Source of the DNA: Elusimicrobiota bacterium
GTDB lineage: Bacteria; Elusimicrobiota; Elusimicrobia; UBA1565; UBA9628
Reading direction: 5' to 3'
NCBI GenBank assembly: GCA_027319565.1
Contig: DAHVNA010000005.1
Coordinates: 8,759-72,758 of the forward strand
Length of the DNA stretch: 64,000 nt
Part shown: positions 1,746 through 9,200 of the stretch, piece by piece
Layout of the letters: each line of letters begins with the position of its first letter
Position numbering within the stretch: position 1 is the stretch's first letter
Notes under the pieces: generated by a model
Seen by the model: only the letters and a program-made list of their open reading frames with translations
What the model was told of the DNA's origin: nothing
The model's database searches: none
Made by a program: the position numbers and the translations under genes

Positions 1746-2546
1746 CTACAAAGTTTTAGCCGTATCCGGCTTGACAAAAATTTTTCCGCTGGAAAAAGAA
1801 CGCATATCAACGAAGAAATTGCCTTTAACATAGGTCTTAGCGTCCGCCATAACGGCGTTGAGCCTCTTAAGCTTATCCTCCGTCCACTTAAGATCTCCCC
1901 AATCAACTCGGGTTCCGTCATTTAAAGTCAAGAGCCATCCATTGACCAAAGACTGATAGCGCAGACTTTCAATCGGAGACGAAAGCGGCAAAGACGAAAT
2001 CTTTTTAAGAAAAGCGGCTATCTGAGCCAAGGCCTTAGGATCCATTTTCGCGTCTAAAATTTTGGGAACAGGATTTTGATACAACTCCTGCGGGGCTTTA
2101 AAAAGTTTCCCCTGTTTATCCAGAAAGCTTGAATTGCCATCCTTCATAACGACGGCGATCGCTTGGCGTAAAACAACATGATAAATTAAGCTTTGAGAAA
2201 AAAAATCTCGCCGGAGATGAACCGATTCCAAAAAGGGAAAATGCGCCAAGATATCCGAGCTTTTATTTTTCCAAGAATGGACGCTTTGGGATTTAAGAAA
2301 AGAAAGAATTTCAGGTTTTAAAGATTCAGGCGCGCCCTCAACCGCCACTGTTTTGGGGGCGGGAATTGACCCGGAAATCGAGTTTTCGATCAAGAAAGCG
2401 GATTTTTTTAAGCGCGACCAACTTAAAACCAGAGAAGTCCCCAGGACAAACATCGCAAGCACGAACAGAATCTTGCGCTTTCGCGCCTTCCGCTCTTGCG
2501 GCCTTAAAGCCACCTTGAGATTTCTATGCGAAACAGAGCCTTTCAT
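1746..2546 (-). CDS. ftsQ: Cell division protein FtsQ/DivIB (divergent)
   Basis: Basic N-terminus, one TM helix, C-terminal VDMR motif; lies between murB and ftsA. Confidence 0.8.
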   Translation of the reverse strand: MKGSVSHRNLKVALRPQERKARKRKILFVLAMFVLGTSLVLSWSRLKKSAFLIENSISGSIPAPKTVAVEGAPESLKPEILSFLKSQSVHSWKNKSSDILAHFPFLESVHLRRDFFSQSLIYHVVLRQAIAVVMKDGNSSFLDKQGKLFKAPQELYQNPVPKILDAKMDPKALAQIAAFLKKISSLPLSSPIESLRYQSLVNGWLLTLNDGTRVDWGDLKWTEDKLKRLNAVMADAKTYVKGNFFVDMRSFSSGKIFVKPDTAKTL

Positions 2547-3451
2547 AACGAGCGCCCAACGACCTTGATTTCAAGCTCAAGACTCACCCCCGCCTCCGCC
2601 TTGATTTTTTGCTGTATTTTTTCGATCAGATCCAGCACATCCGAGGCCTTGGCGTTGTTAAAATTTTCAATAAAATTGGCATGGACAGGGGAGACGCGTG
2701 CGCCGCCCGAGGATATTCCCTTAAGCCCGGCTTTTTCAATTAACTCCGCGGCAAAAAAACCATTGGGGTTTTTAAAAATAGAACCAATATTAAAGGTATG
2801 CACGGGCTGAGTTTTTAAGCGTTTTTCTTGATGAACCGCAACGCGCTTCATTATATCAACTTTCTCGCCTTCTCTCAATCGCAAAAGAGCCGATAAAACC
2901 ACGCGTCCCGAAAGCCCGCTTGAGCGGTAAGAGAAATTGACTCGGGATGAATCAATGAACTCCGATTTAAAAGAGCGCGGATCGAAAATCTCGATATCCT
3001 GAATTAAAGCGCCAATTTCAAGATCGCGCGTTCCGGCATTCATCATCACGGCTCCGCCCAAGGTGCCGGGAATGCCAACCAATGGCTCCGCTCCCCCTAA
3101 ACCGTGATTGGCCGCGACGGAAATAAACTGGGGAATTCGCACGCCGGCCCCAACGCGGACAAGGCCTTTTTCCAAGAAATCGATCTTTTCAAAGTCGCCT
3201 TTGAGAACAGCCACCACCCCCGCGATTCCACCATCCAGGATCAGCAAATTAGAGCCCCAACCCATGAAAAAAACGGGAATATCCACCTGCCGGCTAAAGC
3301 GCATTAAGGTTTCCAGCTCAAGGCGATTATTGATTTCAAGGTAAGCCTCAGAGGGCCCGCCAATCTTAAAAGTCGTGTAGCGCGCCAATGGTTCCCCGAA
3401 GCGCGCTTGAGGGAAAATCTTTTTCAGAGCTTCTTTCCAATCCGCTTGCAT
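2543..3451 (-). CDS. murB: UDP-N-acetylenolpyruvoylglucosamine reductase
   Basis: Motifs TTFKIGG, GSNLL, GIPGTLGGAVMMNAG, GSIFKNP, HANFIEN. Start is ATG 3451 or TTG 3469. Confidence 0.96.
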   Translation of the reverse strand: MQADWKEALKKIFPQARFGEPLARYTTFKIGGPSEAYLEINNRLELETLMRFSRQVDIPVFFMGWGSNLLILDGGIAGVVAVLKGDFEKIDFLEKGLVRVGAGVRIPQFISVAANHGLGGAEPLVGIPGTLGGAVMMNAGTRDLEIGALIQDIEIFDPRSFKSEFIDSSRVNFSYRSSGLSGRVVLSALLRLREGEKVDIMKRVAVHQEKRLKTQPVHTFNIGSIFKNPNGFFAAELIEKAGLKGISSGGARVSPVHANFIENFNNAKASDVLDLIEKIQQKIKAEAGVSLELEIKVVGRSL

Positions 3452-3639
3452 TAAATACAAGCTTAACAAATGGGCCTCTTGTAATTCTATAGACGGAAAT
3501 CAAAAAAAGGCAACGTCCCAATCACTACTCAGCTTATCCAGACAATTAAATAGACTGCTTAATATGTATATTAGGAGAAAGGGCGAATCCTTTTTGAGAT
3601 TTATTAATCTAAAGGATAGAAGGGCCTTGGAGGCGCAAC

Positions 3640-5169
3640 ATGAATCAGAAAAAAAATTCGGGCTTTTATTTGAGGGGGGCTCTATTCTCAGTTTCCCTTT
3701 TTGTTTTTCCGCGCATTTTGACGGCCGCGACCTGGATGGTTCCCGTCGCGCCTCAGGGGCCTTTTGACCGGGTTTACTATCCGCAAAATGCGCCGGTGGG
3801 TTCCGACTTAAGTGTCGGGCCGCTTGAATGGACGCAAATGAATCTCGGGGCCGATCACAATGCGGACGTTCCTCTATTAGGGCAAATGCCGCCGTGGTCT
3901 AAAAATGGAGTTTCTTGGAGATTTGCGGAAGCTCGGGCTTGGCCTTTGGAAAACAAAGATCCATTCGGAACCCATATCTACGGCGAAGTTGAGGCGGGCG
4001 CGGTTCAAACTCAGTTTTACGGAAACGCTCTTGGAGTTTCCGTTGTTGATGGAATCCTCTATGCCGAAAGCGATGATATGTTTGCCTACGCCTTAAACAT
4101 GAAAACGGGGCAGTTGATCTGGCGCACGAGTCCGGTGGGAAATCATTTAATGGGAAATCCCATTGTTAAAGGCCGTTTTGTTTATTTGTCGGCGGGTGGA
4201 GTGGGATTTAATTTCGCAAACGTCGTCAAATACGCAAAAACCCCTTACAAAGCCGTTCGAGGAATGGATTTTAGTTATAACGGAATCTATGCTTTGGATC
4301 GCTTGACCGGCCGTCTTATTTGGCGACATTCAAGCGTGGGCGAAGCCATGCCAACTCCCGCCGTCCATGGAGATGTTCTTTATTTCGCGACCGGAAGCGG
4401 CTCTGTCCATGCCGTTAACCGCCACACCGGCCAAACAATATGGACGACTCACTTAACGGGAAGCGACAATATGTCGAGTCCCGCCTACTATCAAGGCAAA
4501 CTTTATCTTGCTCTCGCCATTAAACCGCGCCTTTATTGTCTTGACGCCAAGACCGGAAAGGTTTTATGGAAAAACACGCTTCCCGGCGCGGCCAATACCG
4601 GAATGGGAGACGTCTCTCCGGCTGTTTCAAACGGCGTCGTCATTATGGACGCAGTCACTCATCCCAAAATCGTAAGAGGTAAAACGACGCTAGATCCAGT
4701 GATTCGGGCTTTTGATTCTGATTCCGGCGCGCCGCTTTGGACCGCGTCCATGGGACGAGGCCCCAAACCTCCGGCTTTTAAAGGCGGGGTTCCCATGATT
4801 TATGGAGGAGTGGTTTATGTCGGTTCGCCAGTCAACGGAGCTTATCAGGCGCGCGATTTAAAAACCGGAAAACTGTTGTGGAAATGGAATAAAATTTCTT
4901 CGGCCAGAAGCGCGCCTACCATGGATGACAACATCCTTTATATCGCCGGCGCGGAAAGCGTTTATGCGCTCAATCCGCGAACTGGGAAAGAAATAGGACA
5001 CATCAAGATCGGCGGAAGAATGGGAATTGTGAGCCCGACAATCGTTGGGGGGACAATTTATTTGTCCAATACCTGGGATTGGATTGTCGCGACTCCAAAA
5101 CAAGATGTTTTAACCTCCAATCAAGAGAAACAGAAACAAACGCAGCCAGCCCAACAGAAAAACAATTAG
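3640..5169 (+). CDS. tetH: Secreted PQQ-like beta-propeller, tetrathionate hydrolase (TetH/Tth) homolog
   Basis: GGAGG SD, Sec signal and beta-propeller W-repeats. Blocks VSWRFAEARAWPL, QTQFYGNALG, YAESDDMFAYA, SPVGNHLMGNP, NTGMGDVSP, PAFKGGVPMI and NTWDWI match Acidithiobacillus Tth as I recall it. Confidence 0.8.
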   Translation: MNQKKNSGFYLRGALFSVSLFVFPRILTAATWMVPVAPQGPFDRVYYPQNAPVGSDLSVGPLEWTQMNLGADHNADVPLLGQMPPWSKNGVSWRFAEARAWPLENKDPFGTHIYGEVEAGAVQTQFYGNALGVSVVDGILYAESDDMFAYALNMKTGQLIWRTSPVGNHLMGNPIVKGRFVYLSAGGVGFNFANVVKYAKTPYKAVRGMDFSYNGIYALDRLTGRLIWRHSSVGEAMPTPAVHGDVLYFATGSGSVHAVNRHTGQTIWTTHLTGSDNMSSPAYYQGKLYLALAIKPRLYCLDAKTGKVLWKNTLPGAANTGMGDVSPAVSNGVVIMDAVTHPKIVRGKTTLDPVIRAFDSDSGAPLWTASMGRGPKPPAFKGGVPMIYGGVVYVGSPVNGAYQARDLKTGKLLWKWNKISSARSAPTMDDNILYIAGAESVYALNPRTGKEIGHIKIGGRMGIVSPTIVGGTIYLSNTWDWIVATPKQDVLTSNQEKQKQTQPAQQKNN

Positions 5170-5181
5170 AAGGAAATCGCC

Positions 5182-6027
5182 CTAGTGGATTTGAAAGCGA
5201 TGGGAATAAGTAAAGGAATAGACATTATTCTTTTCCCCACTCCCCACTTCTGTTGCCCAGGCGGGGATATAGGTGAGAGTAAAATTAAGGGGACGATAGA
5301 CCACAGAAATTCCGCCGCCGGCGGCGGTGTTGTCAGCGGAACTGGGCAGTAAAGCGCTTCCCGAGCTTGTCGCTTGACTTGTTTGAGCCGTGGGCGTTCC
5401 GCTGACGATATAACCAAAAAGAATCCATCTTAAAAATCCGGTGTTAAACTGCGGGGCAATTCCGGCGTCATATGAAAATCCCTGGGCATTATAAATATTT
5501 CCAATCCCGGAATCATTTTCCATGAGATTGCGATATCCCATTCCCACCAGAATCGGCAGTCTAAAATTATTTCCCGAAAACGGATCAAAAACGATGTCGG
5601 CATTGGCGAGAGAACCGTTCGAAGTGGCCTTATCACCGCTAAAGTCCGTGCCTGATAAATGCCCGTATCCCGCCATGACGCCGATGCCCCAGTGATCGGT
5701 AAGGCTGTAAATTGCGGAAGTTCCAATTCCTTCGCCATTCATCTTCCAGGTTGAATTAGGCGTTGCTGGACAGGAACCCGAACAACTTTCAGAAAGAGCA
5801 TATTGATCATAGCCTGGGGAAACGGAAACATCCAACGCCCCGGAAGAAAGCGGCTTGGTGGGAAGAGAAGAAGCCATCAGGTATCCCATCATTTCCTTAA
5901 TATCCGAAGCGGCGACCGGCGATTGAAAACAAAAAACAATCGCGGCACACAAAATAATTTTCTCAAACAAGTTCAGATGCCAGCGACAAGAGTTCTGTTC
6001 CCCGAGATTTTTCAAGGTATACTCCAT
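5182..6027 (-). CDS. Hypothetical exported protein, probable outer-membrane beta-barrel
   Basis: Signal-like segment, Gly/aromatic alternating strands, aromatic C-terminus. Start uncertain (6027 or 6084). Confidence 0.55.
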   Translation of the reverse strand: MEYTLKNLGEQNSCRWHLNLFEKIILCAAIVFCFQSPVAASDIKEMMGYLMASSLPTKPLSSGALDVSVSPGYDQYALSESCSGSCPATPNSTWKMNGEGIGTSAIYSLTDHWGIGVMAGYGHLSGTDFSGDKATSNGSLANADIVFDPFSGNNFRLPILVGMGYRNLMENDSGIGNIYNAQGFSYDAGIAPQFNTGFLRWILFGYIVSGTPTAQTSQATSSGSALLPSSADNTAAGGGISVVYRPLNFTLTYIPAWATEVGSGEKNNVYSFTYSHRFQIH

Positions 6028-6102
6028 TGACAAATAATATAGAAGAATCCTCTCCCCCTTGCAAGAGAGCTCCAACGCATCCACAAAGCCCCCGAAAAAA
6101 AT

Positions 6103-6176: not shown

Positions 6177-9100
6177 ATGAGAAAAATAATCGCTCTGCTT
6201 ATCACCGCCACTCTCTGCGCGCCTGGTCCTCTTTTCGCTGAAAGTTTAGAAACTTCTTTTCAAGCGGAAACTCCCGCCCAAGTTCTTAGCCTTACGCAAT
6301 CTCCTCTTAATATAGAATCCGCGAGTACAATTCCCGCCGATAATTTAAGCCCGGTCGGTTTTGAAAACGGAGAATCTCTCTCAGAAACGCCTCTTCAACG
6401 AATGCATTCTCCCAAAACGCTCAATCGGGTGAGAATTCTTGAACTTAAGCCCGAGACGCCCGCGCTAAAAGAAAAAGCGAGTCCGGTTCAAAAAATAAAA
6501 GGGCGCATCTCTAAAACCATCCAATACGCGAAAAAATCAATCAAGGTTAATCGCCAAAACCTCGCGGGAAATCTCTCTCAATTTTTCGATCGCTCGGCGC
6601 ATTTTTCAAACTACAAAGACTCTCCCGTCATCACCCCCTCTGGAAAAGAAACTCGGTCTTTAAAACCTTGGCAGAAGGCGGGAACTCTAGCAACGGCGAC
6701 TGCGTCTCTGACCAAAGTTCAAAGCGCCATCGCAAGTCCTCTCGCGACTCCGCAAAACGCGCCGGTTCAACACTCTCTTTTAACTTCCCTTTTTAGCGCC
6801 AGCGGACTCACTCATCTGGTTCTCACCGCCGCTGCGGTTGTCTTTACTTATTGGGTTTGGAAAAAATTTGGATCCAACTTGCGCCAAAAAATTTCTGATT
6901 GGAAAAATAACAGAAGCAAAAGCTGGAAAGAAAGCGCTCGAAAACAAAAAGAGGAAAATGCGCCCGTTTCCTCTATTACCTTCGCCGATGTCGCCGGGCA
7001 AGACAAAGCCGTCAGCGAGGTCAGAAAAATCATTTCCGCCTTTGAGTCTCCCTCTAAATATAAAAGCGTGAACGCCCGTTTTAAGCCTCGAAACGCCTTC
7101 CTGCTCGTTGGCCCGCCGGGAACGGGAAAAACCCTCTTAGCCGAGGCTGTGGCCGGAGAACTTAAACTCGACAAGAGTTCTTTTTTCAAAACCGACGGTT
7201 CTTCGTTTATGAACAAATTTGTCGGAGTCGGCCCCGATGCCGTTCGCAAATTTTTTGAGAAAGCGCGAGAACAAAGCAAAAAATCGGGGAAGCCTTCCCT
7301 GATATTTATCGATGAAATCGATGGATTCGGAAACCGCGGCGGAAACGCCGACAGCGGAGCCGACCACGAAAAACAAATGACCATCGGCGCTCTTCTAACT
7401 GAAATGAACAACCTCTCGGGACCGGACTATAACGTTCTGGTCATCGGCGCCACCAACGAATTCGGAAAACTCGACAAAGCTCTTAAGCGCTCGGGCCGGT
7501 TTGGAACGCATATCGCGCTTGAAAATCCCGATCTTCAAGGACGCGAGAGCATCTTGCGCCTCCACACGAAAGAGGCGCGCTTATCCTCGGATGTCGATCT
7601 CCATAAAATCGCGGAAAAGATAACGGGCTTTTCGGGAGCCGACATCGAAGCGGTCGCCCAAAGGGCGACTGAAATCGCCGTTGAAGACAATCAAGCCGAC
7701 TTTATTTCTCAAGCCGATTTTGAAAAAGCGGTCGAAGGCATCAAAGAAAACATCAATCAAAAGGCCAAAGCCGTCGATAGCTCCAACAACTCCTCTACGA
7801 TATCCGTTCAATTTGAGGACCCCGAAACCATGACGACCGGATTTTCCCAGATCGCCGGACAAGACGAGGCTAAAGCGGAAGTCGCGGAACTCGTCGAGCA
7901 AGTCAAAAATCGGTCGCGCTATCTTGAGATTAACCCGCAATTCCGCCCGCTGCGCGGAGCTCTATTATTTGGACCTCCGGGAACGGGAAAAACCTTGATG
8001 GCCCGGGCGATCGCGAAAGAATCCGGAGCCCTTTTCTTTAAAGTAGACGGAACCGAATTTCTCAAAAAGTTCGTAGGCGAAGGCCCCCAGGCGGTGCGGG
8101 ATATTTTCGAGGCCGCGTCCTATGAATCTAAAAGAGAGAAAAAGCCGGCCATCATATTCATCGATGAAATTGACGCCATCGGCCGCGCCCGAGGTTCGGA
8201 TCTAAACGGAAGCCAAGACGCCCTGGTCAACCAGCTTTTAACCGCCATTGACGGATTTAAAACCGAAAATAATGTCACCGTCATCGGGGCGACCAATAAG
8301 CCGGAATCTCTCGACCCCGCTTTAACTCGCGGCGGCCGGCTTGAACTTCAAATTCCCATCGGGCTTCCCGATGTCTTGGGGAGAGAAGGAATTCTCAAGG
8401 TCCACACCCAGGGTATCGCGCTGGATTCCAGCGTCAACCTCAGGGAAATCGCGCAACAAACTGCGGGTTTTTCCGGAGCGGATATGGAAAGCCTGGTCAT
8501 GAAAGCGACTTCCGCCTCCATTAAACGCGGAGCCAAGGCCCTTTCCGAAACGGATTTTATTTCTTCAATCGATCGCGTCCAGCTGGGAATGGAGAGAAAA
8601 CTCGTCATGCCGGAAGATGAAAAAGAAGTCGTCGCCTATCATGAAACCGGACACGCCCTGGTCTCCCATCTTCTGCCGGACTCCGACCCCATCCGCAAAG
8701 TCACCATCGTCCCGCATGGCCTTAACGCCTTGGGGTTGATGCAAGCGGTCTCCGATGTCGAGAGAAGAATTCAAAGCCGCTCCTATCTAGTCGCCCGAAT
8801 GGCGGTCGCCTTGGGCGGAAGAGCCGGGGAAGAACTCCTAAATGAGAGAATTTACGGGAAAAAAGAAAATTTCTCCGGGGCATCCAACGATCTTGAGAAA
8901 GCGACTGAAATCGCCAGATATATGGTGATGAAATTTGGGATGTCCGACAAAATCGGGTTGGTCAGCTACGGATTTGAAAACGAGCGGCAAAATCAGAAGC
9001 CAATGAGCGAAGAAACTTCCAAGGCCATTGAAGCCGAGGTGAAATCTCTTGTAGAACAAGCCTATCATACGGCGAGAGAGACCCTTGAAAACAACTGGGA

Positions 9101-9200
9101 AACCTTTAAAGCCGCCGCGGAAGAGCTTAAGAAAAAAGAAACTCTCCGCGGGGAAGATTTCGATCGCTTAATTCCCAAGGCCCAAAACCTCAAAAAATAA
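6177..9200 (+). CDS. FtsH-like ATP-dependent Zn metalloprotease with tandem AAA+ domains
   Basis: Signal peptide and one TM. Two sets of GPPGTGKT / FIDEID / SRH motifs, then peptidase M41 (HETGH, GGRAGEE, GASND). Confidence 0.9.
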   Translation: MRKIIALLITATLCAPGPLFAESLETSFQAETPAQVLSLTQSPLNIESASTIPADNLSPVGFENGESLSETPLQRMHSPKTLNRVRILELKPETPALKEKASPVQKIKGRISKTIQYAKKSIKVNRQNLAGNLSQFFDRSAHFSNYKDSPVITPSGKETRSLKPWQKAGTLATATASLTKVQSAIASPLATPQNAPVQHSLLTSLFSASGLTHLVLTAAAVVFTYWVWKKFGSNLRQKISDWKNNRSKSWKESARKQKEENAPVSSITFADVAGQDKAVSEVRKIISAFESPSKYKSVNARFKPRNAFLLVGPPGTGKTLLAEAVAGELKLDKSSFFKTDGSSFMNKFVGVGPDAVRKFFEKAREQSKKSGKPSLIFIDEIDGFGNRGGNADSGADHEKQMTIGALLTEMNNLSGPDYNVLVIGATNEFGKLDKALKRSGRFGTHIALENPDLQGRESILRLHTKEARLSSDVDLHKIAEKITGFSGADIEAVAQRATEIAVEDNQADFISQADFEKAVEGIKENINQKAKAVDSSNNSSTISVQFEDPETMTTGFSQIAGQDEAKAEVAELVEQVKNRSRYLEINPQFRPLRGALLFGPPGTGKTLMARAIAKESGALFFKVDGTEFLKKFVGEGPQAVRDIFEAASYESKREKKPAIIFIDEIDAIGRARGSDLNGSQDALVNQLLTAIDGFKTENNVTVIGATNKPESLDPALTRGGRLELQIPIGLPDVLGREGILKVHTQGIALDSSVNLREIAQQTAGFSGADMESLVMKATSASIKRGAKALSETDFISSIDRVQLGMERKLVMPEDEKEVVAYHETGHALVSHLLPDSDPIRKVTIVPHGLNALGLMQAVSDVERRIQSRSYLVARMAVALGGRAGEELLNERIYGKKENFSGASNDLEKATEIARYMVMKFGMSDKIGLVSYGFENERQNQKPMSEETSKAIEAEVKSLVEQAYHTARETLENNWETFKAAAEELKKKETLRGEDFDRLIPKAQNLKK

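Follow-up and report, generated by a model that had tools for sequence, protein, structure and literature searches.

Our analyses identify the open reading frame at positions 3640 to 5169 of the window (the whole 64,000-nucleotide stretch of Elusimicrobiota DNA analysed here) as a gene of the tetrathionate hydrolase (Tth) family, tth. The gene is real and intact; its enzyme family is a known one, its presence in this phylum is unexpected, and the same genome encodes a plausible partner for the pathway, the thiosulfate dehydrogenase TsdA. Judged from their sequences, the occurrence of Tth and TsdA in mine-drainage Elusimicrobiota suggests a sulfur-oxidising ability of which we found no earlier report for the phylum.

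Elusimicrobiota are known mainly as gut fermenters and groundwater heterotrophs. Both sdo and rhodanese have been reported in Elusimicrobia (PMC10811913), and a mine-drainage Elusimicrobiota MAG was reported to carry Cyc2 and terminal oxidases, and, with dsr and sox as the sole criteria, was classed as not cycling sulfur (PMC8357290). In listings and main-text passages of the open literature, neither Tth nor TsdA was found to be reported from Elusimicrobiota; the network figures and tables of PMC11818568 may nevertheless include entries from the phylum.

Family membership and active site

The features of the locus discussed below are as follows.

2543..3469, reverse strand: murB, divergent from tth and first of a murB-ftsQ-ftsA run; context, not part of the system
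3582..3633, forward strand: upstream element (imperfect inverted repeat at 3582-3618) and ribosome-binding site (conservation)
3640..5169, forward strand: tth, Tth family beta-propeller, 509 aa (structure search, predicted model)
3640..3726, forward strand: probable Sec signal peptide, residues 1-29 (read from the sequence)
4150..4473, forward strand: pocket methionines Met171 (4150-4152), Met237 (4348-4350) and Met278 (4471-4473) (alignment)
4609..4611, forward strand: Asp324, equivalent of the catalytic Asp325 of Acidithiobacillus ferrooxidans Tth (alignment)
4906..5019, forward strand: Arg423 (4906-4908) and Arg460 (5017-5019), counterparts of Arg460 and Arg497 in a Metallosphaera Tth (alignment)
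5182..6084, reverse strand: outer-membrane beta-barrel gene, tail-to-tail with tth; context, not part of the system

In a search of solved structures, the two best matches were the A. ferrooxidans enzyme (Af-Tth, E 3e-168) and its D325N mutant (1e-167), both over residues 30-489, whereas the next of the 30 matches stood at about 1e-12 (9e-13) and BamB at 3e-12. A template-free AlphaFold model (mean pLDDT 90, low over residues 1-30) displayed the beta-propeller fold together with the insertion loops of Tth, and superposed on Af-Tth (7CQY_D, TM 0.88/0.96) with an rmsd of 1.3 A at 55% identity. The 12 best rows of the structure comparison were all Tth chains, the top four (7CQY/6L8A) at an rmsd of 1.2-1.3 A, against 3.9 A or worse for BamB among the matches listed. 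The 509-aa protein is thus confirmed as a member of the Tth family, an assignment made by the first-pass annotation from a set of motif blocks; all seven were found, and the Asp of GDVSP is indeed residue 324 (codon 4609-4611).

The same annotation had anticipated that automatic pipelines would mislabel the gene, and Pfam and NCBIfam do yield only PQQ_2 or BamB-type labels. The Pfam PQQ_2 match (E 9e-40) favours a generic BamB or PQQ-repeat propeller, but the NCBIfam scores fall below their cut-offs (BamB 110 vs 285, PQQ alcohol dehydrogenase 81 vs 480), the Tth match is better by more than 150 orders of magnitude, and the sole cysteine is residue 300, with no lipoprotein cysteine of the BamB kind. 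We regard such an identity as ruled out, the probability left to it being very small.

At the catalytic position, Asp324 falls opposite the Asp of wild-type Af-Tth (6L8A) and opposite the Asn that replaces it in the D325N mutant (7CQY). Residues named in PMC11818568 (Met172, Met238, Met279, Arg460, Arg497, Ala407, Thr139 and Gln140) could be placed on two chains: the methionine numbers 172, 238 and 279 fit Af-Tth and map to M171, M237 and M278, and D353, A407, R460, R497, T139 and Q140 of a 536-aa Metallosphaera yellowstonensis protein, used as a stand-in for that of M. cuprina, align with D324, A379, R423, R460, T124 and Q125. Across 176 aligned non-redundant family proteins (from 189 chosen), the D324 site is Asp in 172, M171, M237 and M278 are kept in 176, 175 and 176, R423 in 171 and R460 in 163. 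Since these pocket residues are near-universal in the family, they show membership, not activity.

Compared with Af-Tth (AFE_0029; PDB 6L8A, 7CQY), the protein has a similar length, a propeller with insertion loops and a probable N-terminal leader, and its catalytic Asp, pocket Met and single Cys occupy the same aligned positions. The two proteins differ in that they belong to different subclades, and the Elusimicrobiota host has no RuBisCO found and no two-component or sigma-54 regulator adjacent to tth. The archaeal enzymes (Acidianus ambivalens TTH1, Metallosphaera cuprina TTHMc) share the same aligned residues, through the M. yellowstonensis stand-in, but are only 38% identical and fall outside the core bacterial group. 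In Af-Tth, Asp325 is the acid catalyst of a cofactor-free, cysteine-independent reaction that proceeds only in acid, with a tetrathionate turnover of about 2.5 U/mg (PMC10859504). The putative leader has a basic start and a hydrophobic core, and the match to mature Af-Tth sets in at residue 30-31, from which export of the protein to the cell envelope is predicted. We consider it likely that tth encodes a functional hydrolase of tetrathionate that is active in acid and works outside the cytoplasm.

Locus, distribution and origin of tth

The gene starts with ATG, preceded by GGAGG at 3629-3633, and lies head-to-head with murB. Its description as standing alone between murB and an unrelated gene was accurate, the second neighbour being the barrel gene, which is missing between tth and ftsH in a relative locus (L002). 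No two-component or sigma-54 regulator gene adjoins tth at the locus, and the neighbours of other Tth loci gave no recognised sulfur-gene match in this genome. The inverted repeat upstream of tth is kept in 4/4 aligned loci, one of them at a different chromosomal site, and the element at 3582-3633 is probably the gene's own promoter or operator. A sigma-70 promoter search gave no match on the tth strand, and an upstream motif search allowing two mismatches matched many sites, none of them upstream of tsdA. Further along the window, positions 6177-9200 encode an FtsH-like protease with two AAA domains.

That the host belongs to the Elusimicrobiota, as first proposed, is borne out by a named Elusimicrobia MAG (L001) with the same gene order (ftsA-ftsQ-murB, tth, barrel gene, ftsH) and a Tth protein 94% identical. 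Among 401 genomes of the phylum, Tth was found in four, all of one genus, in which four of six genomes carry it. In the other two, the site falls in an assembly gap (G152, whose contig begins inside ftsQ and in which murB was not found) or the genome is 71% complete, with murB among other neighbours and neither tth nor tsdA found (G429). Loci from the named collection may represent the same genomes as some of the genus genomes and were not counted as extra cases. In G190, tth occupies a different site away from murB, and its Tth identity (87%) resembles those of murB (83%) and ftsA (89%), as would be expected of a gene acquired once, inherited vertically and relocated.

A profile search of 101 genomes of the order returned five matches, those four and G447, whose protein, at 34% identity, has no Asp at the catalytic site and was left out of the Tth count. 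This distant Tth-like propeller (L131:1426-2760) adjoins DsbD-, TlpA- and DsrE-like genes, and the Asp-less subfamily also occurs in L026 and P0221. Five loci (L026, L036, L038, L039 and L040) hold two adjacent Tth paralogues, a core-group copy (51-54%) and a distant copy (34%).

The gene is under purifying selection, with dN/dS of 0.064, 0.065 and 0.104 against L001-L003 (3/3 comparisons) and 0.083 for murB. Its codon use lies at the 40th percentile of 1272 genes and is thus host-like; its GC3 of 0.50 compares with 0.55-0.74 for five Leptospirillum-type copies. The DNA is present in four sequencing runs of one study labelled mine drainage, three of them flagged as a possible source (runs X7 and X9 gave identical tables and were counted once), and a run of another study (X5) contains related pieces. 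No RNA data set appeared among the runs listed.

The nearest proteins outside the genus are Leptospirillum-type (66-71% identity), and the characterised Acidithiobacillus enzymes stand at 52-57%. A 69-row LG+G4 tree, which left out L018 and eleven near-duplicate rows and in which no single branch sets off the outgroup, recovered the genus copies as a 100/100 clade with 19 Nitrospirota-type rows (97/82) as its sister, the pair being joined at 100/100. A 32-row mixture-model tree recovered the joint clade at 100/100, with monophyly of the Leptospirillum side at only 80/83. In both trees the joint clade, whose branch is long (0.43-0.70), falls within the core bacterial Tth group, as do proteins of Acidithiobacillus strain SH and Acidiphilium acidophilum; a Metallosphaera cluster lies further out. 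Af-Tth itself is not a tree row, and the Ap. acidophilum row is not shown to be the purified enzyme. Both organisms have a purified Tth (PMC10859504). Kinship with Acidithiobacillus Tth, the comparison suggested at first, holds at the level of the core bacterial group, although the closest relatives are of Leptospirillum type.

These nearest relatives, and the fact that every carrier is a MAG, are what a binning or assembly artefact, with a Leptospirillum gene placed in an Elusimicrobiota bin, would have in its favour. Such an artefact is contradicted by synteny across separate assemblies: the murB-tth-ftsH order is shared by three genus genomes, and separate contigs join murB to tth (runs X4 and X7) and tth to the barrel gene (X4). 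The genus copies moreover form their own 100/100 clade and the codon use is host-like, so that we give this explanation a negligible probability.

That the gene is seen in a single Elusimicrobiota genus, and across most of a second lineage, argues for its transfer into the phylum. Its sister position does not fix the donor, which could be an early Leptospirillum-type lineage or a common third source. The ancestor of the mine-drainage genus would thus have gained tth laterally from, or together with, the Leptospirillum lineage. As the gene is genus-wide and host-like in codon use, the acquisition is old, not recent.

Leptospirillum Tth (e.g. L. ferriphilum AIA29860.1), the sister group, carries the same residues, and some of its GenBank records are named tetrathionate hydrolase. 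Leptospirillum homologues were also placed in the Tth cluster of a similarity network (PMC11818568), and the characterised enzymes treated in a review (PMC10859504) include none from the Leptospirillum/Elusimicrobiota subclade. Locus L008 comes from a Nitrospirae MAG, and its Tth groups with that of L. ferriphilum; of the 28 genomes in the family of this MAG, 22 had Tth matches, 19 at 66-71% and three at 32-34%. TsdA was found in 25/28, often in several copies and including all 19 genomes with a close Tth, and one of these proteins was confirmed against solved structures. As in the Elusimicrobiota, Leptospirillum tth stands alone, with no adjacent sulfur genes in the locus examined. The distance from tsdA to tth is 15-17 kb in three Leptospirillum-type genomes; a tsdA-tth operon was rejected there, as the intervening genes look unrelated.

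TsdA and the metabolic context

A scan for heme-binding motifs in this genome (G000) recovered a diheme protein at C47:12046-12858, identified as TsdA by Pfam (SoxA-TsdA) and by thiosulfate dehydrogenase structures (E 1e-50); TsdA of the PDB 4WQ7 series is the Allochromatium vinosum enzyme. Both CxxCH motifs are present, as is the RINGC cysteine, a residue with a role in TsdA. The gene forms a lysR - tsdA - solute-binding protein cluster (C47:10543-13877; L078:7544-10878, reverse strand), an arrangement kept in the relatives examined. The proposed search of the genome for doxDA or tsdA thus succeeded in part, DoxD being found in 0/5 genus genomes (controls detected) and TsdA on another contig. 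Although alone at its locus, tth is therefore no metabolic orphan.

TsdA was found in six of the 401 phylum genomes, four of the five of the genus and two from a second genus in the same family. The locus of G307 ends within the binding-protein gene, and its tsdA probably lies in an assembly gap. The solute-binding protein, matched in 5/5 genus genomes, had sulfate-binding SubI as its only structural match (E 4e-5). Reading of the translations revealed no ABC permease gene adjoining it, and the neighbours of tsdA in this genome include no cytochrome gene of the TsdB type; Leptospirillum tsdA differs in adjoining a diheme tsdB-like gene in the loci examined.

TsdA is 100% identical in G340, against 91% for the binding protein and 94% for Tth, which may reflect a recent exchange within the genus. 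Leptospirillum-type TsdA is 37-45% identical, and other matches reach 50-61%. The low identity of the Leptospirillum-type proteins suggests that tth and tsdA were probably acquired from different sources. The A. ferrooxidans thiosulfate cluster also includes a sulfate/molybdate-binding protein gene, and TsdA is bifunctional in other bacteria according to titles cited in the same paper (PMC6335251). In Acidithiobacillus, which lacks TsdA according to that paper, the Tth partner is DoxDA or Tsd, whereas the partner here is TsdA.

Two genes for heme-copper oxidase subunit I occur in each of the 5/5 genus genomes, and this genome encodes several CxxCH proteins besides. SoxZ was found in 0/5 genus genomes, and RuBisCO and the sulfite oxidase family in 0/6 each, with controls detected in all cases; the genus genomes are 71-97% complete, so that these genes are to be read as not found, not as absent. 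ATP-citrate lyase (0/6) is uninformative, its control having matched nowhere. A protein of the SQR/FCSD family occurs in two of five genus genomes (G152 and G190) and was not found in G000, G307 or G340. A motif scan and a broad metallo-beta-lactamase search, which are not a proper test, revealed nothing recognisable as sulfur dioxygenase, and motif scans gave nothing clear for SQR, hydrogenase or Hdr. Rhodaneses occur in 6/6 genus genomes, and in 13/14 controls as well, and are therefore little informative.

Other loci are recorded as observations in their own right. The SQR/FCSD-family genes (L114:5972-8131 in G152 and L115:9012-10697 in G190) have rhodanese-, TlpA- and DsrE-like neighbours, that of G190 being fused to a rhodanese-like domain. 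At C37:8173-13831 (L079) of this genome, the gene of a Cyc2-like monoheme protein without Pfam match, recognised by its motif, precedes genes for a diheme cytochrome and for cytochrome c assembly. Only in G340 was a 94% identical copy found, and a second Cyc2-like protein lies at C32:14561-16000. Iron oxidation is a possible role for these proteins; as a genus-specific trait they were rejected, since 26/401 genomes match, with weaker N-terminal matches. A gene run at C11:23405-30204 resembles alternative complex III, as read from translations.

A possible thiosulfate-tetrathionate loop

By analogy with the Af-Tth mechanism, Asp324 would protonate a tetrathionate sulfur and water would attack, yielding sulfate, thiosulfate and elemental sulfur, in an exported, cofactor-free and acid-active enzyme. 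TsdA would convert two thiosulfate to tetrathionate and pass two electrons via c-type cytochromes to a heme-copper oxidase, and Tth would regenerate thiosulfate, closing a loop in the cell envelope whose net reaction would be thiosulfate + water -> S0 + sulfate + 2 H+ + 2 e-. As no Sox, DoxD, sulfite oxidase or RuBisCO was found, such a loop would provide an aerobic heterotroph with additional energy and have sulfur and sulfate as its end products. It resembles the S4-intermediate pathway (PMC10859504) in combining a tetrathionate-forming enzyme (the diheme TsdA) and Tth in one genome, and differs in that the genes are unlinked and that, with no Sox, DoxD or sulfite oxidase found, it would stop at S0 and sulfate. 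With slightly better than even confidence, we propose a periplasmic Tth-TsdA thiosulfate-tetrathionate loop feeding oxygen respiration in a heterotroph, after an old transfer; the coupling of Tth to TsdA and respiration, considered by itself, has about an even chance. Against the proposal stand the long branch of the subclade, the fact that none of its members figures among the characterised enzymes of that review, the lack of a TsdB-type gene next to tsdA, and the bifunctionality of TsdA in other bacteria.

An active hydrolase might instead serve housekeeping, clearing polythionates from pyrite leaching or feeding sulfur assimilation via the LysR-controlled binding protein. This would explain its retention in Leptospirillum, which is reported to use ferrous iron as its only donor (PMC3305923), and is in keeping with the SubI match of the binding protein and with the downstream genes not found (SoxZ, sulfite oxidase and, in this genome, the SQR type). 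Retention of the genes in an iron-only Leptospirillum implies that a genome can keep them with no benefit to growth, a point against the energy reading here; alternatively, Leptospirillum runs an overlooked sulfur loop. However, TsdA is an electron-transfer enzyme making tetrathionate, needless for pure clearing, and the binding protein has no ABC permease gene beside it; we consider housekeeping unlikely, if still a serious contender. A shift of the subclade to another substrate or role (other polythionates, thiosulfonates, sulfur-globule handling or a surface structural protein), such that it is not mainly a tetrathionate hydrolase, appears improbable, as every active-site residue named above is conserved, the fold agrees with that of Af-Tth at 55% identity, and the more distant archaeal lineage (38% identity) has the same activity (PMC11818568).

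Returning to the energy-yielding loop, we put forward more tentatively, at rather less than even odds, that the mine-drainage Elusimicrobiota genus is a thiosulfate- and tetrathionate-oxidising lithoheterotroph, with a TsdA-Tth loop assembled from separately acquired genes, and that the same loop lies hidden in the Leptospirillum lineage. If true, Elusimicrobiota would have to be added to the sulfur-oxidising bacteria of mine waters, on account of genes labelled BamB or PQQ-repeat by pipelines and missed by screens based on dsr and sox. The joint occurrence of this Tth subclade and TsdA in 19/28 Leptospirillum-type genomes would likewise bear on the iron-only status of a major bioleaching genus.
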